From: Patescibacteria group bacterium
Lineage (GTDB): Bacteria; Patescibacteriota; Patescibacteriia; XYB2-FULL-38-15
Assembly (NCBI GenBank): GCA_041737355.1
Contig: JBGSRW010000008.1
Location: forward strand, 24,466-88,465
DNA length: 64,000 bases
Direction of reading: 5' to 3'
The position numbers were made by a program, and so were the translations under genes. Of the stretch, positions 1,867 to 40,876 are shown one piece after another. Within the stretch, counting starts at the first letter, position 1; every line of letters begins with the position of its first letter. The notes below the pieces were generated by a model. It ran no database searches, was not told the DNA's origin, and saw nothing but the letters and a program-made list of their open reading frames with translations.

Positions 1867-3644
1867 TGCGGGAAAAAATTAGAAATTTTTGTATTATTGC
1901 TCATATTGATCACGGAAAGTCGACTTTAGCCGACCGTCTTTTGGAATTTACCGGAACGGTAGCTAGGCGGGATATGAAAGATCAAATGCTTGACATGATG
2001 GATCTTGAACGCGAAAGGGGAATTACCATCAAGCTTCAGCCGGTGCGCATGGATTACAAAGAACATATTTTAAATTTAATTGATACGCCAGGACACGTCG
2101 ATTTCAACTATGAAGTCTCTAGGTCACTTGCCGCCGTGGAAGGCGCGCTTCTTTTGGTTGATGCGACGCAAGGTGTCCAGGCCCAGACGCTCGGTAATTT
2201 ATATTTGGCACTGGAACAGAATCTAACAATCATTCCGGTAGTCAATAAAATTGATCTTAAAAATGCCGAAGTGGAAAAAACCGTCCAGGAAATTACCGCC
2301 CTGATCGGCTGCAAAAAGGAGGAGGTAATTTTGGCTTCGGGGAAAAGCGGGGCCGGAGTTCCGGAAATTTTGGAAGCAGTTGTTAATAAAGTTCCTTCGC
2401 CAAAAGGAGAAATAAGTAAACCGCTGAGGGCGTTGATTTTCGATTCAAAGTACGACGACTACAAGGGAGTCGTCGCTTATGTCAGAGTTGTGGACGGCGA
2501 AGTAAAAAGGGGGGATAAAATATATTTGGCGGCCACCAAAATCGAAAGCGAAGTTTTAGAGGTTGGATATTTTAAACCAAAGTTTGTTCCGGCCGGAAAA
2601 TTATCAGCCGGGGAAATCGGTTATATTGTGACCGGGCTCAAGGAAATAGAAAGATGCCGGGTCGGCGATACTATAACGGTTCACGATCCGGATCTGACAG
2701 TCCAAAGTTTACCGGGGTATAAAGAAGTTAAACCGATGGTTTTTGCCGGAATTTTTTGCAAGGAAGGGGACGATTTTCCGAAACTGCGCGAAGCAATTTT
2801 AAAATTAAAATTGAACGATGCGGCTCTGACTTTTGAAACCGAGCAGTCCAAGGCGCTCGGCTTCGGTTTTCGCTGCGGTCTTTTGGGTTTGTTGCATCTT
2901 GAAATTGTGGAAGAGCGTCTGCGGCGAGAACATAATCTTGACGTGATTGTTACCGTGCCGTCGGTAGCGTACCGTATTACCAACAATAAGGGAGAAGTGT
3001 TGATTATTAAAAGTCCGTCGGAATTGCCCGACATGAGCCATATCAAATTGATCGAAGAGCCGTGGATTAAAATTGATGTGGTTTCTCCGAGCACCTACAT
3101 CGGCGGTATCATGCAAATGGTGCAGGAAAAGAGGGGAGTATATATCGACACGGAATATTTGGATGCCGACCGGGTTATCTTGCATTATGAAATTCCTCTC
3201 TCGGCAATTCTTGTGGATTTTTACGATAAATTAAAAAGTGTGAGCTCCGGCTATGCTTCATTGAATTACGAATTTTTCGGATATAGGGAGGCCGATGTTT
3301 TGAAAATGGATATTTTGGTGGCGACCGAACCGGTTGAGGCGCTCGCGACAATCGTCTACCGCGACACGGCCCAGGATGTCGGGCGGAGAATTGTCCAGTC
3401 TTTAAAAAAAGTTTTGCCGCGCCAGATGTTTGAAGTTAAAATCCAGGCGGCGCTTGGCGGGAAAATTGTCGCCTCGGAACACTTGCCGGCGATGAAAAAG
3501 GATGTGACAGCCAAGCTTTATGGGGGAGATGTAACAAGAAAGAATAAATTGCTTGAAAAACAGAAAAAGGGCAAGAAAAAGATGAAAGCGTTGGGCAAAG
3601 TTGACATTCCACCTGAGGCATTTTTAGCGGTTCTGAAGAAATAG
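1866..3644 (+). CDS. lepA: translation elongation factor 4 (LepA)
   Basis: 592 aa with a GTPase G1 motif (AHIDHGKST) and DTPGHVDF. The C-terminal LepA-type domain is present. The ATG overlaps the murJ stop (TAATG). Confidence 0.95.
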   Translation: MREKIRNFCIIAHIDHGKSTLADRLLEFTGTVARRDMKDQMLDMMDLERERGITIKLQPVRMDYKEHILNLIDTPGHVDFNYEVSRSLAAVEGALLLVDATQGVQAQTLGNLYLALEQNLTIIPVVNKIDLKNAEVEKTVQEITALIGCKKEEVILASGKSGAGVPEILEAVVNKVPSPKGEISKPLRALIFDSKYDDYKGVVAYVRVVDGEVKRGDKIYLAATKIESEVLEVGYFKPKFVPAGKLSAGEIGYIVTGLKEIERCRVGDTITVHDPDLTVQSLPGYKEVKPMVFAGIFCKEGDDFPKLREAILKLKLNDAALTFETEQSKALGFGFRCGLLGLLHLEIVEERLRREHNLDVIVTVPSVAYRITNNKGEVLIIKSPSELPDMSHIKLIEEPWIKIDVVSPSTYIGGIMQMVQEKRGVYIDTEYLDADRVILHYEIPLSAILVDFYDKLKSVSSGYASLNYEFFGYREADVLKMDILVATEPVEALATIVYRDTAQDVGRRIVQSLKKVLPRQMFEVKIQAALGGKIVASEHLPAMKKDVTAKLYGGDVTRKNKLLEKQKKGKKKMKALGKVDIPPEAFLAVLKK

Positions 3645-3663
3645 ACTTAAAAGTTTAAAAGAG

Positions 3664-3695
3664 AAAAATCACCTGAGAATGGTGATTTTTTGTTT
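3664..3695 (+). terminator. intrinsic terminator after lepA
   Basis: Stem AAAAATCACC (3664-3673) pairs with GGTGATTTTT (3681-3690) and is followed by a T-rich tail. Confidence 0.7.
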
Positions 3696-3766
3696 ATTTA
3701 TGACAATTTATTTTGGCTAAAATAAGCCAAAAGATAGGATTATTTTAGAAATAGTGTCAAAAGCCC

Positions 3767-3795
3767 TTGACAAAATCTAAGATACGTGTTATACT
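3767..3795 (+). promoter_or_regulatory. consensus sigma70-type promoter of the GC-rich island
   Basis: TTGACA (3767-3772), a 17-nt spacer, then TATACT (3790-3795). The -35 context is CTTGACAAAATCT. Confidence 0.7.
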
Positions 3796-3859
3796 TACTT
3801 GTTAAGCTGAAATAGGCTTAAAATAAAAAAAGTGCTTGTCGTGTCAAGTTCTTTACAAA

Positions 3860-4044
3860 GTGCCAGAGAAATTTGGAGGAGGAAGTCTTCGCGGACCATT
3901 TATTGGTAACCGCGTGACTCGGTGTTCGGTTGAGTTAAAGCTCGGTTTTCCCGTTTGGGACTACTAAGATTCAACTCGCCAAAACGCCATTGCTGTTCCA
4001 ATGCTAATTGGAGCGGCGCGCTCACCTCCAAATTCCTCTGGCAC
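3860..4044 (+). promoter_or_regulatory. structured 5' leader domain closed by a 20-bp stem
   Basis: GTGCCAGAGAAATTTGGAGG (3860-3879) pairs with CCTCCAAATTCCTCTGGCAC (4025-4044) at 19 of 20 positions. The stem encloses about 145 nt with several local hairpins (for example CGCGGACCA..TGGTAACCGCG and CCAAT-GCTA-ATTGG). It lies between the promoter and the SD of the 4131 ORF. Confidence 0.55.
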
Positions 4045-4130
4045 ATCTCCGTGAAAAATCGGAGGGCCAAAGGTCAGACTGTGGATGTTCCCGGTCTGAT
4101 TTTAGTAAACGCAAATAAGGAGGTTTTCTG

Positions 4131-5384
4131 ATGGAGAACGGCAGCAAGGAGATTGTGGTTGGCAAGGAGCCGACGGCTACGGCCGAGGCGTTCCTCGAGC
4201 CGCCGAGCGAGGACGACGAGTGGTTGCTCCTGGATTTCAATCCGGCGGCGACCGAGTCCGCGCCGGCCGTGCCCGAGACGCCGAAGCCCAAGCCGCCGCG
4301 CGTCTGCGCGATCTGCCAGCACCCCTCCGGGAATTCGGTGGGCAAGATCAAGCGCGGGCGGATCGCCGAGGTCGAGCACGAAGGGATGAAGCTGCTCACG
4401 CTCGAACCAATCTGCGAACCGTGCGGCGAGAAGTTGCCGCCCGAGGAGCGGAAGAGGCTCTTCAAGGCGGGGTACCTCATCTCCCTGATCGGCGAGAAGA
4501 ACCGCGAGATGCGCGAGTTCGAGGCGGCCAAGGCCTACTGGGCTGCGGTCTTCGCCGGTACGGCAGAGCGGATGCCCGAGGCTCGCAAGACGCCCGAGGA
4601 GATGCTCTCCTGCGGGGTGCCCGGCTGCCCCCGCTGTCACGATCAGGTCGGCCACAAGGTCGGCCACTTCGTGGCGATGACGATCGGCGGCATGCCGACG
4701 CTTCTCGGGGTCTGCTCCTTCCAGGCCGCGGCCTTGGCACAGTGCGGGGTCGAAAAGAAGGGCATCGTCGTGACGACGAAGTTCTCCGTGGCCGCCCCGA
4801 TCGTCGAGGCGGAGAACGCCAGGCTCCAGGCCTTCGAGAAGGCCAAGAGTTTCTGGCTCGCCGTGGCCGAAGGCGAGGCGGCGGTCGAGGCGCGGGCCGA
4901 GAAGACCGAGCGCGGCGACATCTACCGCTGCGGCGTCCCCGGCTGCAAGTGCCGGGAGCACGGCGACCGGCCGGTCGACTACTTCGTGGTCTTGGACGGC
5001 CAGCCCGAGATGCCCATCGCGGGTGTCTGCCGATACCAGTATGCGGCGCTCCGGACCTCCGGGGTGAAGATCTTCGCCGCGAACAACAACGACGGGATGG
5101 GCCTCGCGCGGTGCGCCAAGCACCGCAACTGGCTCCTCGGCCAGGCCAAGAGGGCCATCCGCGACGTCCGGAGGCCGGACGGAATCGGCGGCGGTCTCTC
5201 CCGTTTCCGCTCGCCCGAAGAACAGGCGCGGATCCGCGAGGAGAAGCGCCGGACGTTCGAGGAGCGCGAGGCCAAGCGCCGCTCCCGGCAACTCGAGCGG
5301 GCCAAGGCCTCCTCCAGCAAGGCCGGCTGCGGCAAGAAGGCCAGCAGCAAGAAGGGCGGCAAGGGCGGCGGCAAGAAGCACTAG
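4131..5384 (+). CDS. orphan protein with three tandem Cys/His-rich modules and a Lys/Gly-rich C-terminal tail (gene A)
   Basis: SD AAGGAGG (4117-4123) sits 7 nt before the ATG. Codon third positions are GC-rich in this frame. The ORF has three repeated modules and the tail ...SSSKAGCGKKASSKKGGKGGGKKH. Confidence 0.7.
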   Translation: MENGSKEIVVGKEPTATAEAFLEPPSEDDEWLLLDFNPAATESAPAVPETPKPKPPRVCAICQHPSGNSVGKIKRGRIAEVEHEGMKLLTLEPICEPCGEKLPPEERKRLFKAGYLISLIGEKNREMREFEAAKAYWAAVFAGTAERMPEARKTPEEMLSCGVPGCPRCHDQVGHKVGHFVAMTIGGMPTLLGVCSFQAAALAQCGVEKKGIVVTTKFSVAAPIVEAENARLQAFEKAKSFWLAVAEGEAAVEARAEKTERGDIYRCGVPGCKCREHGDRPVDYFVVLDGQPEMPIAGVCRYQYAALRTSGVKIFAANNNDGMGLARCAKHRNWLLGQAKRAIRDVRRPDGIGGGLSRFRSPEEQARIREEKRRTFEEREAKRRSRQLERAKASSSKAGCGKKASSKKGGKGGGKKH

Positions 5385-5419
5385 CTGGCCGGCCGCTCTC
5401 CCACCAATTTGTTCTTTTC

Positions 5420-5542
5420 TTGGAGCAAGTAGTCTGTGCAATGCAGACACTGTTCGTCAATCACTCTAAGGTGAACGGCGACAGGATCTTGCTCCAAGTC
5501 CTTTTCCTCCAAATCAGCGTAAGTTGGTCTGGAGAAAAGGGA
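5420..5542 (+). repeat. 123-nt structured repeat, copy 1 (R1), just after the gene A stop
   Basis: Identical base for base to 6114-6236. It contains a perfect 10-bp closing helix, TTGGAGCAAG/CTTGCTCCAA, around two hairpins. A second imperfect hairpin of about 12 bp follows (5499-5542). Confidence 0.9.
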
Positions 5543-5597
5543 ATTAGCTCTTTGGCAATTTCGGCGCATAGCGCCGTAGAAAGAAAGGAGATAGTTG

Positions 5598-5930
5598 ATG
5601 GTTCAGGTTCTGATGCTGGCCCTGTTCAGCGTCGCCAAGCGCGACGAACGCGAGGCGAGCGACGAGGGCAGTGAGACCGACGCGGTCGAGCTGCCCGAGG
5701 ATTCGGTCAACTGGCGGGCGGTTCGTTGGCTGGGCGTCGCGAAGATGCCGCGCCGTCGGGGTGGTCGGGCGGCCAACCGTTGCCTTGCCGACATCCCGCC
5801 GCCACCGGTTCGTTTCTCGCGCGAAGGGTTTGACGGACTTCATTCGTGGAAGCGTCAGACTCCGGCCCGCCGTCAGTGGGCCAAGCATCTTCGGAAATCT
5901 TGGGGGCGCGGAAAGAAGGTGGAGGTATGA
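5598..5930 (+). CDS. orphan Arg-rich protein, 110 aa (gene B)
   Basis: SD AAGGAG (5585-5590) sits 7 nt before ATG 5598. Third positions are GC-rich. The stop overlaps the next start (ATGA at 5927-5930). Confidence 0.55.
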   Translation: MVQVLMLALFSVAKRDEREASDEGSETDAVELPEDSVNWRAVRWLGVAKMPRRRGGRAANRCLADIPPPPVRFSREGFDGLHSWKRQTPARRQWAKHLRKSWGRGKKVEV

Positions 5931-6106
5931 AGAAGGAGTGTCGCAAGAGCGTGCCGGAGGTCAAGACGGGAGAGGGTGTTTACATCCTCCGCGTCATGCC
6001 CCAGCCGTCCGTCTGCGCGCACGAGGCGGTCCGTCCCTCCACCCGGCCGATCATACGCTCCGCCATCAAGATCGTCGGCCAGCACGGCCGCGACTGTCTC
6101 CCATAG
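5927..6106 (+). CDS. orphan protein, 59 aa (gene C)
   Basis: ATG 5927 is preceded by GGTGGAGG and overlaps the gene B stop. Third positions are GC-rich. The ORF ends at TAG 6104-6106, directly before repeat copy 2. Confidence 0.5.
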   Translation: MKKECRKSVPEVKTGEGVYILRVMPQPSVCAHEAVRPSTRPIIRSAIKIVGQHGRDCLP

Positions 6107-6113
6107 TTTGTTC

Positions 6114-6236
6114 TTGGAGCAAGTAGTCTGTGCAATGCAGACACTGTTCGTCAATCACTCTAAGGTGAACGGCGACAGGATCTTGCTCCAAGTCCTTTTC
6201 CTCCAAATCAGCGTAAGTTGGTCTGGAGAAAAGGGA
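6114..6236 (+). repeat. 123-nt structured repeat, copy 2 (R2), just after the gene C stop
   Basis: 100% identical to 5420-5542. Weaker similarity extends upstream (CTCCCA..TTTGTTC). Confidence 0.9.
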
Positions 6237-6286
6237 TTCCAAAATTTTTTAGCCATTTTTACGGCTAGTCAGATCCCACGCAAGGG

Positions 6287-6315
6287 CACCGCCAGTTGGC
6301 GGTGTTTTTGTTTTT
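6287..6315 (+). terminator. intrinsic terminator closing the GC-rich island
   Basis: CACCGCC (6287-6293), loop AGTT, GGCGGTG (6298-6304), then TTTTTGTTTTT. Confidence 0.8.
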
Positions 6316-6321
6316 AAAATG

Positions 6322-6330
6322 TGCTATAAT
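6322..6330 (+). promoter_or_regulatory. extended -10 promoter (TGCTATAAT)
   Basis: An exact TGCTATAAT. The same 9-mer recurs at 8646, 16113, 17286, 26872 and 38529. Confidence 0.55.
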
Positions 6331-6360
6331 AGTCCAATATTTATTTTACGTAATGTTTTT

Positions 6361-6459
6361 ATGAAAAAGAAAAATTTGCAGAAAATAGTATGGATAATTG
6401 TCTCAGCTATTGTAGTTTTTTCCATGGTTGTCTGGACAATCGGGCCAATGCTGTATTAG
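6361..6459 (+). CDS. possible small hydrophobic protein (32 aa)
   Basis: ATG..TAG encodes MKKKNLQKIVWIIVSAIVVFSMVVWTIGPMLY, a single transmembrane-like segment, downstream of the 6322 promoter. There is no SD and it is too short for the ORF track. Confidence 0.3.
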   Translation: MKKKNLQKIVWIIVSAIVVFSMVVWTIGPMLY

Positions 6460-6489
6460 CCGCGGAGTTTGTAATTTGTTATTAAAAGT

Positions 6490-8220
6490 ATGAAGTGGAA
6501 AGTCGCCGAACCGATCAGCGAAGAATTCAGAAATAAATTTCCGGAGATCGATCCGGTTATTTTGCAATTACTCGCTAACCGTGGGGTAAAAACCCAGGAA
6601 CAGATTGATGAATTTCTGTATCCAGATTACGGGCCTGATATTCACGATCCGTTTTTATTTTTGGATATGGAAAAAGCGGTCGAGCGGGTTTTCCGGGCGG
6701 TGGAGAAAGGAGAAAAAATTACGGTTCATGGCGATTACGACGCCGACGGAGTTTGCTCGGCATTGATCGTAGTCAGTACGCTCGAAGCCATGGGTGCTAA
6801 AGCCGAGGTTTATCTGCCGCACCGCGAACTCGAAGGGTATGGACTGAATATGCAAACAGTTGAAGAGTTGGGGAAAAGAGGGACAAATCTTATTATTACA
6901 ACCGACTGCGGCATCAGTAATCGGGAAGAGATAAAAAGAGCGGTTGAACTTGGAATGGAAGTAATTGTCACCGACCATCATGCCGAGCCGCTTAATTTGC
7001 CCGAGGCAGCTTTGGCAATTATCAATCCCCATTTGGCGCGAGAAAAGTATCCTTTTAAGGAATTGTCCGGGGCGGGAGTAGCTTTCAAATTCGTTCAGGG
7101 GATTTTACATAAAATAAAAACAACGGCGCCAAAAATAGAATTCAGGGAAGACCCGGAGGGATTTGAAAAATGGCTTCTGGATCTTACGGCTATTGCCACG
7201 ATTGCCGACATCATGCCCCTCTTGGGCGAGAACCGGACGATCGTAAAATACGGCTTGATTGTCCTGAACAAAACCAAACGGCTGGGATTGAAAAAAATGA
7301 TTGATTCGCTGGGCTTGAACAAGGCAAAATTGCTTGACGCAAGAAACGTATCTTTTCAGATTAGTCCGCGGCTGAACGCGGCCGGCCGGATCGACCACGC
7401 CAACCAGGCCTATGAACTTTTAAAAACATCGGACGGGAACGAAGTTGATAAATTGGTCGCGGCCCTGAATAAAACCAACGAAGACAGGCAAGCGCTTTCC
7501 GAGCGCGTAACGGCCGAAGCCAAGGAGAAAATAGGAGAAGAGGTTGGCGAAAGAAAAGTTTTGTTCGCCGTGGGTAAGGGTTGGCCGATAGGTATTGTCG
7601 GATTGGTAGCCGGGAAAATAGCCGATAATTTATGGCGGCCGACTTTTATTATGGCAGAAAAAGAGGGGAACATTATGGGGTCGGGAAGGAGTATTCCGGA
7701 ATTTGATATTATGGAAGGGCTCAGGGAGGCGAAAGAATTTTTGTCACATTACGGCGGACACGCCGGAGCCTGCGGATTTACCCTGAAAAATAAAAAAGAT
7801 CTGAAGAGGTTTGAAAAGACCCTGGAGAAATTTGCTGAAAAAAAATTAGCCGGCTCGGAACTTGTCCCAAGCCTGAATATTGACTCGGAAGTTAAACTGG
7901 AAAAAATAAATTGGGAGCTTTTCGAGCTCTTGGAAAAATTTTCACCATTCGGGAAGGGGAATGAGCGGCCGAGATATTTGGGGAGGGGTTTGACGGTCGA
8001 AAGCTTTGAAGGGGTGGGAAATAATGGAAATCATTTACGCATAAATTTGAGCCACGAAAACGGCCAAAAGAAAAAATTTATAGGTTTTTGTTTTGGAAGC
8101 TGGTGCGAGAAATTAAAAGCGGGAGATAAAATTGATGTAGTTTTTGAAATTGATGTTAATGAATGGAACGGGAACAGGGAACTGCAGATGAAAATTATTG
8201 ATTTAAAACATAGCGAATAA
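6490..8220 (+). CDS. recJ: single-stranded-DNA-specific exonuclease RecJ
   Basis: 576 aa with DHH-family motifs (HGDYDADGVCS, TTDCG, VTDHH) and a DHHA1-like GGHAGACG. Confidence 0.9.
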   Translation: MKWKVAEPISEEFRNKFPEIDPVILQLLANRGVKTQEQIDEFLYPDYGPDIHDPFLFLDMEKAVERVFRAVEKGEKITVHGDYDADGVCSALIVVSTLEAMGAKAEVYLPHRELEGYGLNMQTVEELGKRGTNLIITTDCGISNREEIKRAVELGMEVIVTDHHAEPLNLPEAALAIINPHLAREKYPFKELSGAGVAFKFVQGILHKIKTTAPKIEFREDPEGFEKWLLDLTAIATIADIMPLLGENRTIVKYGLIVLNKTKRLGLKKMIDSLGLNKAKLLDARNVSFQISPRLNAAGRIDHANQAYELLKTSDGNEVDKLVAALNKTNEDRQALSERVTAEAKEKIGEEVGERKVLFAVGKGWPIGIVGLVAGKIADNLWRPTFIMAEKEGNIMGSGRSIPEFDIMEGLREAKEFLSHYGGHAGACGFTLKNKKDLKRFEKTLEKFAEKKLAGSELVPSLNIDSEVKLEKINWELFELLEKFSPFGKGNERPRYLGRGLTVESFEGVGNNGNHLRINLSHENGQKKKFIGFCFGSWCEKLKAGDKIDVVFEIDVNEWNGNRELQMKIIDLKHSE

Positions 8221-10220: not shown

Positions 10221-10272
10221 AAAGTTCTGGGGATATTAATGCTTGCCAGAGTTGGTGGGCGGTCGGTTTTTG

Positions 10273-10281
10273 TGGTATAAT
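10273..10281 (+). promoter_or_regulatory. extended -10 promoter (TGGTATAAT) of the pilus operon
   Basis: TGGTATAAT lies 34 nt upstream of the pilM ATG. Confidence 0.5.
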
Positions 10282-10314
10282 ATTAAAAGTAAATTATCAA
10301 TAGTTAATCGATAT

Positions 10315-11400
10315 ATGCAAAAAAGTTATTTAGGCGTTGACCTCGGGGCAACCAGTATCAAAATCGTCGAATTGAAGGAAGAGGCCGGTCGGCCCAGGCT
10401 TCTTACTTACGGTTATACCGAACAGGCCGCCGGTTATCCGGAAAAAGAATTTACCGATACCCCAGAGAGATCAATCGATCTTATCAAACAGGTTTGCGTC
10501 AAAGCCAGAACCGTCTCGAAGCAAGCGGTTGCCGCACTTCCCTCCGCGTCCGTTTTCAGTTCGGTCATAAATATTCCGGCCGCGCCAGGCAAGGATTTGG
10601 CCGCCGCCGTGCAATGGGAGGCCAAAAAAATTATCCCACTGCCTCTTGAGGAAATGATTTTGGATTGGAAAATTTTAACTCCGGAAGGGGAGACGGCCGG
10701 GACCGCAGCGCCCGCTCCGGTAATACCTACGGTTCAGGCGTCCGCTCCGAAAACAACGCAAGTTTTGCTGACCGCCGCTGCAAAAACAATGGTCAAAAAG
10801 TATTTGGATATTTTTAAAGGTGCCGGGTTGAGCCTTGTCAGTCTTGAAACGGAAACGTTCGCCCTGATCAGATCTCTCGTCGGGATCGACAAGTCCACCG
10901 CGATTCTCGTGGATATGGGGGCGGCGAGTACGACTATTTCAATCGTTGAGAGCGGAATTCCATTTTTGAACCGTTCTTTGAATATCGGCGGACTGACAAT
11001 AACAAAAGAAATAGCGGCAAGTTTGGGTATCGATTTGAATCAGGCTGAACAGATGAAGTACGACGTCGGGATGGCGGGAGCGGGAACGGGCGGAGGAGGC
11101 GTACCAAAAATTATCGAGCGCGCCCTTTCGATGCTTTTGAACGAAATAAAATACTGTACCAATATTTATCAAAGCCAGGACAATACCAGGGGGCGCCGGA
11201 TAGAAAAAATCGTTTTGACCGGAGGAGCCGCCCTTTTGCCCGGTTTTCCGGACTATCTAGCCGGGGCGTTGAATACAAGAGTTTTTATAGGCAATCCCTG
11301 GGCAAGGGTTATTTACCCCGAGGAACTGAGACCAATTTTGGACCAGATCGGTCCTAAATTTTCCGTCGCAATCGGTTTGGCGATGAGGGAAATAGAGTAG
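10315..11400 (+). CDS. pilM: type IV pilus assembly ATPase-fold protein PilM
   Basis: Actin-like fold signature (YLGVDLGATSIKIVEL ... VLTGGAALLPG). It is the first gene of the pilMNO-BC order. The start is taken at MQKSYLG. Confidence 0.8.
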   Translation: MQKSYLGVDLGATSIKIVELKEEAGRPRLLTYGYTEQAAGYPEKEFTDTPERSIDLIKQVCVKARTVSKQAVAALPSASVFSSVINIPAAPGKDLAAAVQWEAKKIIPLPLEEMILDWKILTPEGETAGTAAPAPVIPTVQASAPKTTQVLLTAAAKTMVKKYLDIFKGAGLSLVSLETETFALIRSLVGIDKSTAILVDMGAASTTISIVESGIPFLNRSLNIGGLTITKEIAASLGIDLNQAEQMKYDVGMAGAGTGGGGVPKIIERALSMLLNEIKYCTNIYQSQDNTRGRRIEKIVLTGGAALLPGFPDYLAGALNTRVFIGNPWARVIYPEELRPILDQIGPKFSVAIGLAMREIE

Positions 11401-11435
11401 CCGATAATTCGAGGAAAATTAAAATTTTCGTTTTT

Positions 11436-12416
11436 ATGCCGAACGGCAATAAAAATAACGGAAAGAAGGAGATTGAATTGCTCCCGGCAGAATTCAGGAG
11501 GCCAGAAGAAAAAAAGAGACGGGAGGAAAGGCCGGAAGTGAAATTATTTATTCCTCCGGCGGAAGCTAAATCTCAAAGGGAAACCTTTACGGGGAGGTTT
11601 TTTGGTACAAGAGAAACGCCGAAGCCGGTTGAAAATAAAAATGTTCGTGAAGAAACGGATATGTCGGTCTTCAAAATGCAAAAAGAGCCGAGAAAACCCC
11701 TCCAGCCCCCACCGCCTCCGCCGCCGCCACGTTCGGTTCCGCCTCCGGTCGCTTTGCGCCAAGCTCCTCAGATAAAAAAAGAACCTCTCCCGCCGCCAAA
11801 ATTACCGCCGCAATCAGCCGGAAAAGGTATTGTTTCGTCTAAAAACAGAATGGGAGGGATTACCCTGATTCCCGAAGAAAAAACATCTCCCAAGGAAGCG
11901 GCGAGACCCAAGCAAAAAGTTATTCTTGCGGTAATGGTGATTATTTTGGTCGCCATTTTAGGCGGAGTTTTTGGAATATTGGCGTGGTATTCGGGAGCGG
12001 CAAAAAATGAGTTAGCAAAGATAGAAAAAGATGTCGCCGCGGTAGAACAACAAATCAAAAATTTGGATGAAGCCAAAAATCGCGCCCAGACATTACAAAA
12101 GCAATTTCAAATTGCCGAGAAACTTTTGAATAGCCATGTTTACTGGACCGGGGTTTATTCTTTTCTTGAAAAAAATACCATCCCGGAAGTCTATTTTAAA
12201 AATTTTGTCGGCGGAAGCGACGGGCAGATCAGTATGTCTGGGGTAGCGAAAAGTTACAAGGCGGTTGCCGGCCAGATAGTTTCTTTGCGCGAAGCGGAAA
12301 AAGTGGAAAAAGTTTCCATTACTAGCGCGTCGGCAAGTGTTTCTCCGACAGGGGAGACAGCCGAAGTAAATTTTGACGTCAAATTAAAATTAAATCCGGA
12401 GATATTTTTAAAATAA
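11436..12416 (+). CDS. pilN: PilN-like bitopic pilus assembly protein with a Pro/Lys-rich cytoplasmic region
   Basis: One TM segment (VILAVMVIILVAILGGVFGILAWY) is followed by a coiled-coil. The call rests mainly on its position between pilM and pilO. Confidence 0.55.
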   Translation: MPNGNKNNGKKEIELLPAEFRRPEEKKRREERPEVKLFIPPAEAKSQRETFTGRFFGTRETPKPVENKNVREETDMSVFKMQKEPRKPLQPPPPPPPPRSVPPPVALRQAPQIKKEPLPPPKLPPQSAGKGIVSSKNRMGGITLIPEEKTSPKEAARPKQKVILAVMVIILVAILGGVFGILAWYSGAAKNELAKIEKDVAAVEQQIKNLDEAKNRAQTLQKQFQIAEKLLNSHVYWTGVYSFLEKNTIPEVYFKNFVGGSDGQISMSGVAKSYKAVAGQIVSLREAEKVEKVSITSASASVSPTGETAEVNFDVKLKLNPEIFLK

Positions 12417-12419
12417 AAT

Positions 12420-13004
12420 ATGGCCGAAAAATCGGAAGTAAAAAAAGAAGAAAAATCCAAGGAAAAAACCTCCATCGTTCTTTTTATTTTTTTGGCAGTG
12501 GCGGTTTTCGCAGCTCTTTCATATTTTTTGGTTTGGCCTCAATACGAAAAATTTTCCCAGACTAAAAATAAAATTACGGCGGAAAAGGCTCGGCTTGATG
12601 ACCAAAAAGCAACGCTGGCAAATATAAATAAAATGATTGCCAATTACGAGGCGATCGGTCAGGCGAACCGGGAGAAACTGGCCTCGATGCTGCCGGAAAC
12701 GACAGACGAGCCGGGATTGTTTGTTCTTTTCGAAGCACTGGCAATAAAAAATAAAATGGCGCTTTTGGCCTTGGATATAAGCGAGAAGGACGTTTCGGCT
12801 GATTTAAAAAACTTAGGGGTGAAAGAGGTTAACATCGCCGCCAATCTGACGGGGGGAGGTTACGCCGACTTTAAAAATTTGCTTGCGGATTTGGAAACAA
12901 ATTTAAGGCTTATGGATATTACGGCAATAAATTATACCCCAGACCCTTCTTCGCTGACGCTCAACGTAAAAACTTACCGTCTGAATAATTCTCCGGCTAA
13001 ATAG
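12420..13004 (+). CDS. pilO: type IV pilus assembly protein PilO
   Basis: 194 aa with an N-terminal TM, a coiled-coil, then an alpha/beta domain. Position in the operon supports the call. Confidence 0.6.
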   Translation: MAEKSEVKKEEKSKEKTSIVLFIFLAVAVFAALSYFLVWPQYEKFSQTKNKITAEKARLDDQKATLANINKMIANYEAIGQANREKLASMLPETTDEPGLFVLFEALAIKNKMALLALDISEKDVSADLKNLGVKEVNIAANLTGGGYADFKNLLADLETNLRLMDITAINYTPDPSSLTLNVKTYRLNNSPAK

Positions 13005-13019
13005 ATTTAAGAGGCACAT

Positions 13020-13262
13020 ATGAATAAAAAAATTATTTATTTAGCGGGCTTAGCGTTAATTTTAGGAATTGGCGGCTATTTTTTATATAGCTTGCTTCTT
13101 CCGGGCGGAGATATTCCGGCGACCGGAACGGCTAAAAATTTTGAATTCAAGTTTAAAACAAAGATTTTTTCTGATCAGAAATTTTCTGATCTAAAAAATA
13201 ATATAAATTTACCGGTAAAAGCCGGCGAAAAAGGGAAGACTAACCCGTTCATGAAATTTTAG
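13020..13262 (+). CDS. small membrane-anchored protein of the pilus operon
   Basis: 80 aa with an N-terminal hydrophobic anchor, located between pilO and pilB. Confidence 0.5.
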   Translation: MNKKIIYLAGLALILGIGGYFLYSLLLPGGDIPATGTAKNFEFKFKTKIFSDQKFSDLKNNINLPVKAGEKGKTNPFMKF

Positions 13263-13265
13263 TGT

Positions 13266-14999
13266 ATGGCAAGTCCGTTGCTCAATCTTCTGGTGGAAGA
13301 AAAATTTATAGAGAAGGACACGGCGCAGGCAATTGTTGAAGAGAGCCAGAAAACCGGAAAAAGCGTAGAATCAATCATCGAAGAATCCGGCGCCGTTGAA
13401 GAGGAAAAATTGGCCGAAACAAGGGGCCGGATTTTTAATTTGCCATACGCAAATCTTGTCGGCCGGGAAATAAAATTCGAAGACCTGAATATAATCCCGA
13501 AGGACGTAGCGGAAAATAACCAAGTAATATCTTTTGAACAAATCGACGGGGAAGTCAGTGTCGGCATAGTTGATCCTAAAAATATCTCCGCCATGGAGGC
13601 CTTGCAGTTTTTGGCCAAGGAAAAAAATTTTTCTATAAAATATTTCGCGATATCCCACACAAGTTTCAAGGATGCCGCCAAAAAATATGAAATTTTGAAA
13701 AAAGAGGTTGAAAAAGTTTTGGAAATTGCTAAAGAAAGATTTACGTCGGAGGAAAAGGCTATCGAAGAGGTTCCTTTGGGGCAGATTGAGGAAGTGATCA
13801 AAAAGGCGCCCGTTTCCAAGATGGTCGCGATGATAATGAAGTATGCTGTTGACAATAAGGCGTCGGATATTCACATAGAGCCGGGTTTTAAGGAATCCAG
13901 GGTTCGCTACAGGGTTGATGGTGTTTTGAAAGGGAGATTGGCTCTTCCGGCTTACATTCATGCCGCGGTTGTTGCGAGAATTAAAGTTTTGGCAAATTTG
14001 AAACTGGACGAAACAAGAATTCCCCAAGACGGGAGAATTCGTCAGGCAATCGGAGGGAGGAATGTCGATTTTCGTATTTCAACTCTTCCGTTGATGGATC
14101 AGGAAAAAGTCGTAATGAGGGTGCTCGAAACGGCAAGCCGGGCCGCTTCGCTCGAGAATCTCGGTTTCCGCGGTCGGGCGGTCGAAGTTATTTCGAGAGA
14201 GATAAAAAAACCGCACGGTCTATTGCTTGTGACCGGTCCGACCGGGTCGGGGAAGTCGACAACTCTTTATACGGCCTTAAGCATGGTTAACCGTGAGGGA
14301 ATAAATATAGTAACACTTGAAGATCCTATTGAATATTATATCGAGGGGGTCAACCAATCTCAGATAAGGCCGGAAATCGGTTTTACTTTCGCGGCCGGAC
14401 TCAGGGCGCTTTTGCGCCAGGATCCGAATATTATCATGGTCGGAGAAATCCGCGACAGTGAAACGGCTGAACTCGCGATTCACGCGGCATTAACAGGACA
14501 TTTAATTTTTTCGACTTTGCACACCAACGACGCGGCCGGAGCAATTCCCCGCCTGATTGATATGAAAGTAGAACCATTTTTGCTTTCCTCGACGCTCAAT
14601 GCCATTGTAGCCCAGCGTTTGGTAAGAAAAATTTGCCCTTACTGCAAAGAACAAATCGATGCGCCGGAGGAAGTCGTAGCTGATTTCAGGAAAGAATTGG
14701 TTACTGTGCCAAAAAGATTCGTGCCCAAGGATATAGACATAAGCAAAAAGATTTCTTTATGGCATGGAGTCGGCTGCGCCCGTTGCGGAAACGAGGGATA
14801 CAGCGGACGGGTTGTTATTTCCGAAGTTATTGAAGCAACCGAAAATTTGAGGCAAATCATCGCCACGGGTTTTAATATAAAAAGTCTTAATGAGGAAATG
14901 GAGCGGCAGGGAGTTATTTCCATGAAGCAGGACGGATATCTGAAAGTTCTCGAGGGTTTGACGACAATTGAAGAAGTGATGAGGGCAACCCAGGAATAG
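13266..14999 (+). CDS. pilB: type IV pilus assembly ATPase PilB (GspE family)
   Basis: 577 aa with Walker A (GPTGSGKST), Walker B plus Asp box (IIMVGEIRD), a His box (TGHLIFSTLHTN) and a tetracysteine motif (CPYC...CARC). Confidence 0.9.
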   Translation: MASPLLNLLVEEKFIEKDTAQAIVEESQKTGKSVESIIEESGAVEEEKLAETRGRIFNLPYANLVGREIKFEDLNIIPKDVAENNQVISFEQIDGEVSVGIVDPKNISAMEALQFLAKEKNFSIKYFAISHTSFKDAAKKYEILKKEVEKVLEIAKERFTSEEKAIEEVPLGQIEEVIKKAPVSKMVAMIMKYAVDNKASDIHIEPGFKESRVRYRVDGVLKGRLALPAYIHAAVVARIKVLANLKLDETRIPQDGRIRQAIGGRNVDFRISTLPLMDQEKVVMRVLETASRAASLENLGFRGRAVEVISREIKKPHGLLLVTGPTGSGKSTTLYTALSMVNREGINIVTLEDPIEYYIEGVNQSQIRPEIGFTFAAGLRALLRQDPNIIMVGEIRDSETAELAIHAALTGHLIFSTLHTNDAAGAIPRLIDMKVEPFLLSSTLNAIVAQRLVRKICPYCKEQIDAPEEVVADFRKELVTVPKRFVPKDIDISKKISLWHGVGCARCGNEGYSGRVVISEVIEATENLRQIIATGFNIKSLNEEMERQGVISMKQDGYLKVLEGLTTIEEVMRATQE

Positions 15000-15023
15000 T
15001 TTCCGGAAATTGGCGAAATTTTT

Positions 15024-16109
15024 ATGGCGATAGACATAAATTTGGACAAATATTTGGCGAAAATCCCTTTTTTTAACAGGATTCCGCCGAAAGATTTGGT
15101 TATTTTTTCTCGGCAGTTATCTGTTATGATTTCTGCCGATGTTCCGATTGTTCAGGCCCTCAAGGTTCTTGTCCGCCAAACGGCAAATAATAATTTGAAA
15201 ACGGTAGTGGCTAATCTTGCTGCGGACGTCGAGGGGGGCACAAAATTTTCCGCGGCACTTTCGCGTTATCCCGATACTTTCAGCGATTTTTTCATAAACA
15301 TCGTCCGTTCCGGGGAAACGACGGGAAAACTTGATGAAGTTTTGGACTATTTGGCTACCCAACAGGAAAGAGATTACGATTTATCAAGCAAAATAAAAGG
15401 CGCCATGATTTATCCGGCGTTTATTTTATTTGGGCTTATTGCCGTCGGGACGGTGATGATGATTTTTGTTATCCCTAAATTAACCGATATTTTAAAGGAA
15501 ACGGGAGCGACATTGCCTCTCTCGACGAGAATTTTGATTGGAACTTCCGATATTATGAAAAATTACTGGTGGGCGCTTCTGATCGGTTTGGTAGCTTTTG
15601 TCGGCGGATTAAGATATCTAATTGCCCTGCCCTTGGGCAGGAAATATTGGGACACCATGAAATTAAAGCTTCCGATTTTCGGCCAGCTTTTTAAGAGAAT
15701 TTACATGGTCCGTTTTACGCGCGGACTTTCAACCCTCTTGACCGGAGGGGTGGAAATTGTCGGCAGTTTGAAAATAGCCGGAGCAATTGTTGGCAATGCT
15801 GTTTACCAAGATTTGATTTTACAGACTGTCCGCGAGGTGGAAGACGGCAATCCGATAACTACAGTTTTTGCAAAAAGCAAAGAAATTCCCGTGATGGTAA
15901 CCCAAATGCTCGGCATCGGCGAGCAGACAGGCAAAATCGACGCTATTTTGGCCCGCCTGACGGATTTTTACACCCGCGAAATAGAAAACATGGTCAGAAA
16001 TTTAACGACGATCATGGAACCGCTGATCATGCTTTTCATGGGCGTGGCGGTCGGCATCATGGTTGCGGCGATTATTTTGCCGATGTACAATCTGGCATCG
16101 CAATTTTAG
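15024..16109 (+). CDS. pilC: type IV pilus platform protein PilC (GspF family)
   Basis: 361 aa with a duplicated T2SS-F domain pattern and three TM segments. Confidence 0.85.
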   Translation: MAIDINLDKYLAKIPFFNRIPPKDLVIFSRQLSVMISADVPIVQALKVLVRQTANNNLKTVVANLAADVEGGTKFSAALSRYPDTFSDFFINIVRSGETTGKLDEVLDYLATQQERDYDLSSKIKGAMIYPAFILFGLIAVGTVMMIFVIPKLTDILKETGATLPLSTRILIGTSDIMKNYWWALLIGLVAFVGGLRYLIALPLGRKYWDTMKLKLPIFGQLFKRIYMVRFTRGLSTLLTGGVEIVGSLKIAGAIVGNAVYQDLILQTVREVEDGNPITTVFAKSKEIPVMVTQMLGIGEQTGKIDAILARLTDFYTREIENMVRNLTTIMEPLIMLFMGVAVGIMVAAIILPMYNLASQF

Positions 16110-26822: not shown

Positions 26823-26850
26823 AAGCGGATTTGAGGAATCCGCTTTTTTT
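26823..26850 (+). terminator. intrinsic terminator
   Basis: AAGCGGATT, loop TGAGG, AATCCGCTT, then TTTTT. Confidence 0.85.
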
Positions 26851-31276: not shown

Positions 31277-31305
31277 GCGATGGCTTAAGCGCCGTCGCTT
31301 TTTTT
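31277..31305 (+). terminator. intrinsic terminator
   Basis: GCGATGGC / GCCGTCGC stem (one G-U pair) followed by TTTTTTT. Confidence 0.75.
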
Positions 31306-34232: not shown

Positions 34233-34281
34233 GGCGTTGGGGGAGTATTTGACATTAAATTGGATATCCACTAAAATAAGC

Positions 34282-34310
34282 TTGACACCTTTTAAGGGAG
34301 ATAATATAAT
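34282..34310 (+). promoter_or_regulatory. consensus promoter of the infA/ribosomal-protein block
   Basis: TTGACA (34282-34287), a 17-nt spacer, TATAAT (34305-34310). Confidence 0.75.
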
Positions 34311-34496
34311 AGTTTCAGCGGTAAAACAACTGAATTTTTTGGAACTGGGGACTCGAAAAGAGGATTCCGGGTTCTGCGGTTTTTGTTTTAGTTATCAAAG
34401 ATAAAGAGTATCAAACTCTGTGTTGACGGCGCTCGCCGTCCGCCTCAGGCGGATCTCGCTCGCTTGTCAATAAAATTAAAAAAAGCAAACCGCCTT

Positions 34497-35256: not shown

Positions 35257-35730
35257 ATGACAGACGAACAAGTAAAAAATAATGAAGCGGTGAACACCGA
35301 GGAAAAAAAAGCCTCAGGCAAGGCCGAAACCGCCGAAACAAAAGTCAAGACCGCCAAACCAAGAAAGAAAAAAGTCGTCAGACATGTTCCGATCGGCAGG
35401 GCTTATATTCAGGCAACATACAATAACACTATAGTTACTTTAACCGATCAAAACGGCAATGTGCTCAGCTGGTCGAGTTCCGGAATGTGCGGGTTTAAGG
35501 GACCGAAAAAATCCACCCCATATGCTTCTGGCATTGTGGTTAAAGACGCGGCCGATAAGGTTATTGATTACGGGCTTAAGGAACTAATTGTTTTCGTTAA
35601 AGGCGTCGGCCAGGGCCGGGAAGCGGCTGTAAGAGCTTTGAACGCCAACGGGTTCAATATTTTATCCATTAAAGATATGACTCCGATACCGCATAACGGT
35701 TGTCGGTCTCCTAAACCTAGGAGAGTATAA
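35257..35730 (+). CDS. rpsK: 30S ribosomal protein S11 with a Lys/Glu-rich N-terminal extension
   Basis: The core is [28 protein letters not shown]..., preceded by about 35 extra residues. Confidence 0.95.
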
Positions 35731-35737
35731 CAGAAAT

Positions 35738-36367
35738 ATGGCAAGAAATTTAAAAGCAAGATGCGCAAGATGCCGTAGGGAGGGAGAAAAGCTCTTTTTG
35801 AAGGGTGAGCGTTGCTATATGACAAAATGCGGCGCTGTCCGCCGGCCATTTCCTCCGGGAATGCATGGACCTAAGGGAAAAATCAGGTTAACCGGTTACG
35901 GAATACAGCTCCGGGAAAAACAAAAGGCGAAACAAATTTACGGAATTCTGGAAAGACAATTCAGAAATTATTTTGATAAATCAAGTAAAAAGACCGGCGA
36001 TACGAGCGAATTTTTGCTTCAGCTTTTGGAGATGAGGCTTGATAACACTGTTTATCGCTTGGGTTTTGGAAAATCGCGCCAGCAGGCCAGACAGCTTGTC
36101 AACCACGGCCTTTTCTTTGTAAACGGAAAAAAGGTTTCAATTCCTGCTTATCAGGTTAAGGTTGGCGATATAATCTCAATAAAGCCGAGCGCGGCCAACA
36201 AGAAAGTTTTTCAGAATTTGCCGCAAACTCTTCAAAAATACGAAGCTCCCATCTGGCTTTCCTTGGATACCACCAAGCTTGAGGGCAAGGTTGTCCGCAA
36301 GCCGACCAAGGAAGACGTTAAAACTCAATTTGATATCAAAGTGATCATTGAATTTTATTCTCGCTAA
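35738..36367 (+). CDS. rpsD: 30S ribosomal protein S4
   Basis: The N-terminal Zn-ribbon form (CARCRREGEKLFLKGERC) and an S4 RNA-binding domain. Confidence 0.95.
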   Translation: MARNLKARCARCRREGEKLFLKGERCYMTKCGAVRRPFPPGMHGPKGKIRLTGYGIQLREKQKAKQIYGILERQFRNYFDKSSKKTGDTSEFLLQLLEMRLDNTVYRLGFGKSRQQARQLVNHGLFFVNGKKVSIPAYQVKVGDIISIKPSAANKKVFQNLPQTLQKYEAPIWLSLDTTKLEGKVVRKPTKEDVKTQFDIKVIIEFYSR

Positions 36368-36397: not shown

Positions 36398-37216
36398 ATG
36401 GAGCCAATCATTTTACCCTCCAAAATAGAAATCAAAAAGGGAAAACTTCCGAACGAAGCGGTTGTTACTGTTGAACCGTGTTATTACGGTTACGGAACAA
36501 CTTTGGGCAACGCTCTCAGGCGCGTTATTATTTCCAGTTTGCCTGGAGCGGCAGCAACAGCGGTTAAAATCAAAGGGGTCCAGCATGAGTTTTCCACTAT
36601 TCCGCACGTCAAAGAAGACGTGATAGAAGTTCTTCTCAACTTGAAACAATTGAGAATGAAAGTCTATTCGACGGAGCCAGTAAGATTGGTTCTTAAAGCC
36701 AAGGGGGAAAAAGAAGTTACGGCCAAGGATATAGAAGATTCGGCCGACGTGGAGATAATCAATAAAGATCTGCACATCGCCGAAATGACAAGCAAAAACG
36801 CCGATCTGGAAATGGAAATTTTTGTAAGCCAGGGCCGCGGATATGTTCCGGTAGAGGCCAGAGAAAAGGAAAAATTGGAGCTTGGGGCGATTGCTATCGA
36901 TTCCATTTTTACTCCGATCAAAAATATCGGCTATAAGGTTGAGAATGTCCGCGTTGGCGATATAACAAACTACGACAAATTAACTTTGAATATTGAAACG
37001 GACGGAACTATTGCGCCGGAGGAAGCCTTGGAACAGGGGGTCAAGCTCTTAACCGATCATTTCAATCTTTTTCTTGGCAAGCCCGCGGCGGAAGAGGAAT
37101 CGGTTAAAGAGGAAACCGCCGAGGAGACTGAGCCGGCTGAAGAAAAAGAAGAGAAAGCGGATGACGCCGGAGAAAAGGCTAAGAAAAAAAGAGGAAGGCC
37201 AAAAAAGGCAAAATAG
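36398..37216 (+). CDS. rpoA: RNA polymerase alpha subunit: NTD only, with an acidic linker and a terminal AT-hook-like motif
   Basis: An alpha-NTD sequence up to about aa 227 (GTTLGNALRRVIISSLPGAA...). The 45-aa tail ends KKKRGRPKKAK. No HhH-type alpha-CTD is visible. Confidence 0.9.
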   Translation: MEPIILPSKIEIKKGKLPNEAVVTVEPCYYGYGTTLGNALRRVIISSLPGAAATAVKIKGVQHEFSTIPHVKEDVIEVLLNLKQLRMKVYSTEPVRLVLKAKGEKEVTAKDIEDSADVEIINKDLHIAEMTSKNADLEMEIFVSQGRGYVPVEAREKEKLELGAIAIDSIFTPIKNIGYKVENVRVGDITNYDKLTLNIETDGTIAPEEALEQGVKLLTDHFNLFLGKPAAEEESVKEETAEETEPAEEKEEKADDAGEKAKKKRGRPKKAK

Positions 37217-37239: not shown

Positions 37240-37590
37240 ATGAGACACAGAAAAAAAGGAAAAACTTTAGACAGGAAAGTCGGACCGCGCAAGGCATTGC
37301 TCAGGAACCTGGCGGTCAGCTTGATTTTGTATGAAAAAATACAAACAACTAAGGCAAAAGCTAAAACGATAAAACCGATCGTAGAAAGATTAATCACCAA
37401 GGGAAAGGTTAATACGCTTGTGGCGAGACGTAATCTTTTGAAATATTTGTACAAGGAGGCTGCCGTGAAAAAGATTCTTGAAGATATCGGACCCAGGTAT
37501 AAAGATAGAAAAGGCGGTTATACGAGAATTTTAAATCTTGGCCGGCGAGCGGGGGACGCGGCGGAAATTGTCCAAATTGAATTAGTGTAA
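37240..37590 (+). CDS. rplQ: 50S ribosomal protein L17
   Basis: MRHRKKGKTLDRKVGPRKALLRNLAVSLILYEKIQTT... in the conserved position after rpoA. Confidence 0.95.
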   Translation: MRHRKKGKTLDRKVGPRKALLRNLAVSLILYEKIQTTKAKAKTIKPIVERLITKGKVNTLVARRNLLKYLYKEAAVKKILEDIGPRYKDRKGGYTRILNLGRRAGDAAEIVQIELV

Positions 37591-37967: not shown

Positions 37968-38519
37968 ATGACAGCGGAAACTAAAAAACCAAAAAAGACA
38001 ATAAAGGCGGTAAAAGCGGTAAAACCGGCGAAGAAAGCCGTGAAGAAAAAAATAATTCCGGCTAAAGCGGAAGTGGTTGAAGAAAAAGAAATAATACTTG
38101 AAGAAGAAAAAATGACCGAAGAAAAAAAATCTGGATATCTTTACGCGGTCGGCAGGAGAAAACAGGCGATTGCCACCGTTAAACTTCATAAAAATGGTAA
38201 GGGCAAAATAACCGTTAACGGAAAATTTTATACAGAATATTTCCCGACAGACGATTTAGAGCAGATTGTTTCCGCGCCTCTGAAATCGGTAGGCCAGGCA
38301 GATAAAGTCGATATTGAAGCAAAAGTTTTATCCGGCGGTAAGCACGGCCAAGCCGAAGCGGTCCGTTTGGGAATTTCCAGAGCTTTGGTGCTTCTAAACA
38401 TTAATTTTAAAAAAAATTTGAGAAAAGCCGGATTTTTGACCCGCGATCCGAGATCCAAAGAAAGAAAGAAACCGGGTTTAAAGAAGGCAAGGCGGGCGCC
38501 ACAATGGCAGAAACGTTAA
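37968..38519 (+). CDS. rpsI: 30S ribosomal protein S9 with a 55-aa Lys-rich N-terminal extension
   Basis: The core starts at YLYAVGRRKQAIATVKL and has the C-terminal ...KKARRAPQWQKR. Confidence 0.95.
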   Translation: MTAETKKPKKTIKAVKAVKPAKKAVKKKIIPAKAEVVEEKEIILEEEKMTEEKKSGYLYAVGRRKQAIATVKLHKNGKGKITVNGKFYTEYFPTDDLEQIVSAPLKSVGQADKVDIEAKVLSGGKHGQAEAVRLGISRALVLLNINFKKNLRKAGFLTRDPRSKERKKPGLKKARRAPQWQKR

Positions 38520-40842: not shown

Positions 40843-40876
40843 AACGACGCGGACAGCAGTTTGCGTCGTTCTTTTT
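40843..40876 (+). terminator. intrinsic terminator
   Basis: AACGACGC (40843-40850) / GCGTCGTT (40863-40870) followed by CTTTTT. Confidence 0.75.

Follow-up and report, generated by a model that had tools for sequence, protein, structure and literature searches.

The stretch of DNA analysed here (the window; 64,000 nucleotides of contig JBGSRW010000008.1, from a Patescibacteria group bacterium, with a G+C content of 45%) carries a cluster of ribosomal protein genes in the order infA-rpmJ-rpsM-rpsK-rpsD-rpoA-rplQ-rplM-rpsI. [quoted passage not shown] The alpha-CTD is treated as universal in bacterial transcription: it reads upstream promoter (UP) elements, and class I activators dock mainly on it. 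The gene lies between rpsD, which ends at position 36367, and rplQ, which starts at 37240, in the operon context rpsM-rpsK-rpsD-rpoA-rplQ that is typical of RpoA. Judged by this context and by its N-terminal domain (NTD), the protein is a genuine alpha subunit of a Falkowbacteria-like Patescibacterium; the nearest named genomes are Candidatus Falkowbacteria.

Table 1 Features of the rpoA locus, in positions of the window (aa, amino acids; ORF, open reading frame; pLDDT, predicted local distance difference test score)
Feature	Position	Strand	Basis or remarks
Two tandem near-consensus sigma-70-type promoters, predicted	34249..34310	+	TTGACA-17-TAAAAT, then perfect TTGACA-17-TATAAT; upstream of infA operon
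rpoA, RNA polymerase alpha subunit, natural CTD-less form	36398..37216	+	ORF, 272 aa
Alpha-NTD (aa 1-227), dimerisation and insert domains	36398..37078	+	AlphaFold2 model; alignments with E. coli and B. subtilis alpha
Acidic linker, predicted disordered (aa 228-259)	37079..37174	+	15 D/E, 4 K/R; low pLDDT
Basic tip KAKKKRGRPKKAK (aa 260-272, +9), one AT-hook	37175..37213	+	Composition, conservation, Pfam AT_hook
RGRP core of AT-hook (aa 265-268)	37190..37201	+	Invariant in RGRP class
rplQ (L17), directly 3' of rpoA	37240..37590	+	ORF

The NTD, the platform on which beta and beta' assemble, is complete. A Pfam scan of RpoA places PF01000 at residues 56-172 (E = 4.8e-34) and PF01193 at residues 27-222 (E = 7e-23). 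Residues 21-226 align with residues 24-232 of the E. coli alpha subunit at 44% identity, and residues 23-244 of the B. subtilis subunit (6wvj) align with RpoA as well. The match to solved alpha structures has E = 2e-66, and among these structures we found none with an alpha that carries such a tail. An AlphaFold2 model built from a 52-sequence alignment has a pLDDT above 90 to about residue 230, with a final helix at residues 207-225.

Beyond the NTD, the helix-hairpin-helix family of the alpha-CTD (PF03118) has no match in RpoA even at E ≤ 10, and the NCBIfam rpoA equivalogs match only at model positions of about 3-254 out of 298-344 (270 bits for TIGR02027, whose cutoff is 227.8). The E. coli and B. 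subtilis CTDs, compared with the window by tblastn, gave nothing below E = 0.1. We also built a clean custom hidden Markov model (HMM) from 78 CTDs of relatives. This model recovers the CTD in all six related loci that possess one, finds none in 74 CTD-less loci and has no match in any of the six translated frames of the 64-kb window (best E = 0.53). Pfam found no CarD_CdnL_TRCF domain in RpoA either. As judged from these sequence comparisons, the folded alpha-CTD is lost in this lineage. The initial annotation of the locus had described a protein of this kind, without the alpha-CTD and with a normal NTD to about residue 227 followed by a 45-residue acidic tail and basic tip; its coordinates and composition agree with ours, and the PF03118 scan that it proposed is the negative one above.

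The gene is complete, and the tail is not an artefact. Three independent assemblies encode this 272-residue protein in 100% identical form, among the same neighbouring genes. The stop codon of rpoA (TAG) is followed by another in-frame stop five codons further on, and no CTD-like sequence was found in the other two frames. TGA is the stop codon of seven genes in the window, which indicates the standard genetic code. The gap between rpoA and rplQ is 23 nucleotides here, and in 80 of 80 genome loci rplQ starts -11 to 109 nucleotides after rpoA, so there is no space for a CTD-coding segment. The initial annotation had thus been right to see no truncation; it had also raised the possibility of a separate gene for a CTD-like domain, of which the clean HMM finds none in the six frames of the window.

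The tail spans residues 228-272 (45 residues) and consists of the linker KPAAEEESVKEETAEETEPAEEKEEKADDAGE (32 residues, 15 D/E and 4 K/R) and the tip KAKKKRGRPKKAK (+9). The AlphaFold2 model has a pLDDT of 37-52 and no secondary structure for residues 231-272, with values below 50 for residues 234-261; the tail is thus predicted to be intrinsically disordered, in keeping with the flexible linker that had been proposed for it. Inside this predicted disordered segment lies the AT-hook KKKRGRPKK (residues 262-270), in which an R and additional K/R residues surround a G-R-P core; both the position of the RGRP core and its K/R flanks are as first annotated. The Pfam AT_hook family (PF02178) matches residues 262-272 with 9.5 bits when the whole of RpoA is scanned and with 12.7 bits when the tail is scanned in isolation, below the gathering threshold of 17.4 in both cases. 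This threshold is uninformative for single hooks, because human HMGA1a, which has three, itself scores only 16.2 bits as a whole, and its third hook alone gives no match.

Conservation sets the motif apart from the linker that carries it. Across 67 non-redundant tails with the motif (the RGRP class), the K-K-K-R-G-R-P-K-K columns are nearly invariant, with an entropy of 0-0.7 bit, whereas the linker columns have 2-3 bits. The composition of the linker is kept despite this divergence (34% E; median net charge -7). The motif lies 26-93 residues (median 40) past the NTD and 3-11 residues before the C terminus, and 66 of the 67 tails have a single hook (one GRP); linkers of such length should be sufficient for the motif to reach upstream DNA. 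Chance is a poor explanation of the motif, because it is near-invariant in these tails and because the copy in RpoA is the only K/R-flanked RGRP among the real genes of the window. The codons for RGRP vary synonymously across loci (AGA/AGG/CGC/CGT/CGA, GGA/GGT/GGC and CCA/CCT/CCC/CCG), and the amino acids are constant, even in lineages that are just 51-61% identical in the NTD. Because the codons turn over while the amino acids stay, RGRP is under purifying selection.

Loss of the CTD extends well beyond the window. We searched a database of 5.8 billion proteins and took the best 120 homologs (58-100% identity, 238-330 residues); 120 of these 120 are without PF03118. CTD-less RpoA proteins also occur in Uhr-, Magasanik-, Buchanan- and Kerfeldbacteria, and a canonical CTD is kept in Portnoybacteria and in other Patescibacteria loci (L048, L057, L059, L060, L075 and L077). 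We sorted 336 homologs by the sequence that follows the NTD: 99 have a K-rich tip, 81 a CTD, 72 an RGRP motif, 43 an acidic-only tail, 13 an RGR-like variant and 12 essentially no tail; the other 16 are unclassifiable, mostly frame-shifted or chimeric. The initial annotation had suggested an alignment of RpoA to map the loss of the CTD and the gain of RGRP; in this set, some Patescibacteria retain the domain. The K-rich class shares the layout of an acidic linker (-9) and a basic tip (+7), the tip being 51% K and 11% A.

In a neighbour-joining tree of the NTD, the window falls into a block of 212 leaves from Patescibacteria that resemble Falkow-, Uhr-, Magasanik-, Buchanan- and Kerfeldbacteria; 208 of these leaves are CTD-less. 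Within the block, the RGRP sequences fall into one coherent sub-clade (83 leaves, 69 of them of RGRP type) and several small basal groups, and the K-rich and the acidic-only or tail-less sequences form separate blocks. A Fitch reconstruction on this tree leaves the ancestral tail ambiguous, either K-rich or RGRP. The CTD-bearing Patescibacteria relatives often have unusually long, strongly K-rich interdomain linkers with a net charge of +5 to +17, so the charged linker may predate the loss of the domain. Examples of such linkers were seen in loci L059, L060, L075 and L077 and in proteins P0137, P0142 and P0159 (for instance, LEEKKAKKKKPAKVKVKTVKKVKKIVSKKKEA). Three homologs (P0121, 569 residues; P0126, 526 residues; P0207, 664 residues), in which the alpha-NTD matches twice or begins at residue ~220-350 of a far longer protein, may represent fusions, duplications in tandem or mis-called genes. 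Many records of metagenome-assembled genomes with Patescibacteria-type rpoA operons (L002, L009, L011, L012, L019, L026 and others) carry foreign titles, such as 'uncultured Gammaproteobacteria bacterium', 'Candidatus Saccharibacteria' or 'Kapaibacterium', which makes the titles a poor guide to taxonomy.

If the tail contacts promoter DNA, the promoters of the clade are where a trace would be expected. About 150 nucleotides of leader (34311-34463) separate the predicted tandem promoters from infA, and an equivalent near-consensus promoter is predicted upstream of infA in most related loci, which indicates that canonical -35/-10 promoters are in use in the clade. For this infA promoter, we measured for each tail class the excess of A+T over the locus mean at -60..-36 of the predicted promoters. 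It is +0.15 in the RGRP class (n = 12), +0.10 in tail-less loci (n = 7), +0.06 in the acidic-only class (n = 18) and +0.05 in the K-rich class (n = 8). The RGRP class differs from the acidic-only and tail-less classes taken together (P = 0.025), and a control window shows no difference (P = 0.67).

A second test covered all near-consensus predicted promoters, averaged per locus, as the A+T content at -60..-36 minus that at -90..-66, and CTD-bearing loci from a metagenome scan were added as a positive control. The difference is positive in the RGRP class (+0.069, n = 12) and in the CTD class (+0.037, n = 13), and negative in the K-rich (-0.056, n = 40), acidic-only (-0.057, n = 21) and tail-less (-0.073, n = 8) classes. 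Both positive classes stand out from the rest (RGRP, P = 0.0009; CTD, P = 0.0095), in a comparison that ignores kinship and in which classes are clades. The direction is stable for thresholds of 11-13 and for a -50..-36 window. The metagenome scan yielded at least 2-3 further RGRP loci among the matches listed, on short contigs, and no independent replication of the RGRP result. The excess of A+T is suggestive support for an UP-like role of the RGRP tail in the minor groove.

These observations lead to a reading on which we set about even confidence: that the tail is a tethered reader of the DNA minor groove and touches AT-rich DNA immediately upstream of the -35 box. Alpha is a dimer, so each polymerase would have two tails. 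The alpha linker exits on the upstream side of RNAP, where in other bacteria the CTD touches the minor groove of UP elements, and AT-hooks bind the minor groove of A/T tracts. Both tails would leave alpha at the usual linker exit, on the upstream face of the enzyme and near promoter position -40, and each AT-hook would act as a flexibly tethered reader of the minor groove on the A/T-rich DNA just upstream of -35, in a contact that would speed or stabilise promoter binding. That the tail binds DNA, where on the promoter it would do so and how transcription would be affected are inferences. The tail would preserve, in minimal form, part of the CTD's role at UP elements, and the activator-docking role of the domain has presumably been given up. 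The acidic linker probably guards against non-specific sticking of the basic tip, or folds back onto it as in HMGA/HMGB-type proteins. More tentatively, the clade may have swapped its CTD for a disordered 'acidic leash plus AT-hook' that is a true UP-reading analogue and co-evolves with AT-rich DNA upstream of -35, its sisters having taken non-specific K-rich (H1-like) tips or loss; we hold this fuller evolutionary account to be possible rather than probable.

Several observations weigh against a minor-groove reader. K-rich tips (99) outnumber RGRP (72) among the CTD-less homologs, and 55 CTD-less relatives (the 43 acidic-only and 12 tail-less proteins) have no basic tip at all, so a DNA-binding tip must be dispensable in some lineages. 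The proposal of the initial annotation that the AT-hook substitutes for the CTD is partly supported, by the conservation of RGRP and, suggestively, by the A+T excess upstream of -35; the AT-hook does not replace the CTD throughout. Its rationale of an AT-rich genome finds no support: the window is only mildly AT-rich, tail class and G+C content of the locus are not linked, RGRP loci are no more AT-rich than K-rich loci, and the CTD-bearing relatives are the most AT-rich. A single AT-hook alone binds weakly, as known from HMGA. We acknowledge that the promoters are predicted, that the A+T effect is small (less than 2 of 25 bases), that its P values ignore phylogeny, and that with a -120..-96 control the all-promoter effect is weaker (P = 0.07-0.11). 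Nor do the K-rich-tip lineages show any A+T excess upstream of -35.

Within the window itself, we took 27 upstream regions, which gave 11 predicted promoters above the null, several with T-runs beside the -35 box. The A-tracts beside -35 for which the initial annotation had advised looking were rejected as an UP-like signal, and this too counts against the proposal: they are largely the T-tails of upstream intrinsic terminators, found next to predicted -35 boxes at, for example, 26823-26845, 31277-31298 and 40843-40870. The AT-rich stretch at the tandem infA promoters overlaps the -10 box of the other promoter. Because the T-runs are terminator tails, the within-window test of A-tracts is uninformative. 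Intrinsic-terminator-like hairpins number 56 between 25001 and 45000, against 30.4 ± 5.9 in shuffled sequence.

The main rival explanation is a sequence-independent electrostatic tether, in which an AT-hook and a K-rich tip alike bind DNA of any sequence and serve only to speed the association of RNAP with DNA or to hold RNAP at the nucleoid, with no promoter element being read. We consider it somewhat unlikely, yet it draws on several lines of evidence. Sister lineages have K-rich tips in place of RGRP in the same layout of linker and tip (-9 and +7), CTD-bearing relatives already have K-rich linkers (+5 to +17), CarD functions with either an H1-like or an HMGA-like domain (PMC2919716), and tethered CTDs speed binding even to non-promoter DNA (bioRxiv 10.64898/2026.07.21.739884). 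Against it, R-G-R-P itself, and not mere charge, is invariant in the 67 tails, which points to a specific contact, and RGRP and K-rich lineages differ in their A+T content upstream of -35.

It is improbable, in our estimate, that the tail instead binds RNA or some other partner (the nascent transcript, the ribosome or a regulator), or that the function lies in the acidic linker, which would mimic DNA or help recycling in the manner of the Gram-positive delta subunit's acidic tail or of sigma region 1.1. AT-hooks are able to bind RNA, and the same motif occurs on a protein that binds rRNA: in two Kerfeldbacteria loci, ribosomal protein S9 is extended at its N terminus by a segment that carries KKRGRPRKK or KKRGRPKKK (L056:4521-5060 and L076:4539-5120; consensus KKRGRP(R/K)KK). 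The motif therefore need not imply binding to DNA or to UP elements. In the window, S9 (rpsI, 37968..38519) has a K-rich extension without RGRP, and S11 (35257..35730) has a charged N-terminal extension; charged tails are thus general in these proteomes and may bind RNA, which again tells against a DNA reader. The 43 relatives with an acidic-only tail suggest that the acidic part is valuable by itself. However, to judge from known RNAP structures, the tail should leave alpha where the enzyme faces upstream DNA, well away from the RNA exit channel, and the correlation with promoter A+T excess is not expected from binding to RNA or another partner.

Far less credible is a functionless low-complexity remnant, a tail that drifts neutrally after CTD loss and keeps RGRP through recent common ancestry. 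The linker sequence is indeed highly variable, the tail is fully lost in some relatives and charged extensions are common in this genome, but the motif is invariant as protein at 51-61% NTD identity with differing codons, and its entropy lies far below that of the neighbouring linker columns (0-0.7 versus 2-3 bits). An artefact or split gene, with truncation by an assembly or frameshift error or a CTD encoded elsewhere in the genome, is very improbable: the search for a separate CTD covered 64 kb of the genome, but the identical protein in three assemblies, the hundreds of CTD-less homologs of the same length, the adjoining rplQ in 80 of 80 loci, the two in-frame stops and the absence of a CTD from all window frames and from 74 CTD-less loci all speak against it.

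The remainder of the window holds genes of other functions. MurJ, LepA and RecJ are encoded at 238-8220, and type IV pilus genes resembling those of a type II secretion system (T2SS; PilM-like, T2SSE ATPase and T2SSF platform) lie at 10243-16109, upstream of the ribosomal cluster. Between 4000 and 6000 there is an island of 63-66% G+C in the ~44% G+C of the window, with long overlapping ORFs in several frames. Its best two ORFs (4220..5674 and 5671..6126, both on the + strand) have no Pfam match, and the island may be a foreign or fast-evolving gene. No tRNA genes were found in the 64-kb window, and no Rfam families at the gathering threshold.

A clade of Patescibacteria without the CTD must initiate transcription with little or no recruitment of activators through alpha, and in one sub-clade the domain would have been replaced by a eukaryote-style AT-hook built permanently into the core enzyme. 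If this is true, a nine-residue motif is enough for core RNAP to regain recognition of DNA upstream of the promoter, and the clade is a natural set of RNA polymerases with no tether, a non-specific one or a specific one. These natural variants (AT-hook, lysine-rich, acidic-only and none) could serve as a test of the recent proposal that the CTD is essential simply as a flexible DNA-binding tether. Tethered alpha-CTDs speed RNAP-DNA association 10- to 55-fold (bioRxiv 10.64898/2026.07.21.739884). The tail is also a possible minimal, portable reader of upstream DNA for engineering.

Loss of the alpha-CTD with the NTD kept is already known, from the endosymbionts Hodgkinia and Tremblaya, from Euglena plastids and, in one sentence, from Parcubacteria (PMC8321222). 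That sentence, of 2021, cites Nelson & Stegen 2015 (PMC4508563), in the main text of which RNA polymerase is absent. Among the papers covered by our literature search, we found none on an AT-hook with RpoA, nor on a charged replacement tail.

The RGRP tail can be compared with several known systems. It shares with the alpha-CTD of E. coli and B. subtilis (PF03118) a C-terminal position on alpha, a flexible linker and two copies per enzyme, together with a contact, here proposed, to A/T-rich DNA upstream of -35 through its minor groove; both the alpha-CTD class and the RGRP class have, at predicted promoters, extra A+T at -60..-36. It differs in having no helix-hairpin-helix fold and no homology to the domain, in its long, strongly acidic linker and in placing a 9-residue motif where the CTD has ~80 residues, which leaves no surface for activators. 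The nearest mechanistic precedent is mycobacterial WhiB7, which is bound to region 4 of sigma-A and contacts promoter DNA by an AT-hook, a motif described as rare in bacteria (PMC8786299). WhiB7, too, ties one C-terminal AT-hook to the holoenzyme; however, it is a separate, regulated Fe-S transcription factor on sigma, whereas the hook of RpoA belongs permanently to a core subunit and comes in two copies.

The architecture of the tail recalls that of CarD from M. xanthus, in which RGRP hooks come after an RNAP-binding domain and a disordered stretch of acidic residues (PMC4374960), so that an RNAP-associated folded domain, a disordered acidic segment and an RGRP hook are common to RpoA and the CarD/HMGA type. 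In a related species, a K-rich H1-like domain replaces the hooks of CarD with function kept (PMC2919716), a swap that parallels the RGRP and K-rich tips among RpoA relatives. CarD has no sequence relationship to RpoA; it acts as an accessory factor that binds the beta subunit and has four hooks, in contrast to the one hook of the RpoA tail. The CTD-less alphas of endosymbionts and plastids have been described as erosion, with no conserved replacement motif reported. Unlike Hodgkinia, Tremblaya and Euglena, the Patescibacteria carry a conserved tail of acidic linker and AT-hook (or K-rich tip) across a large, free-standing clade.

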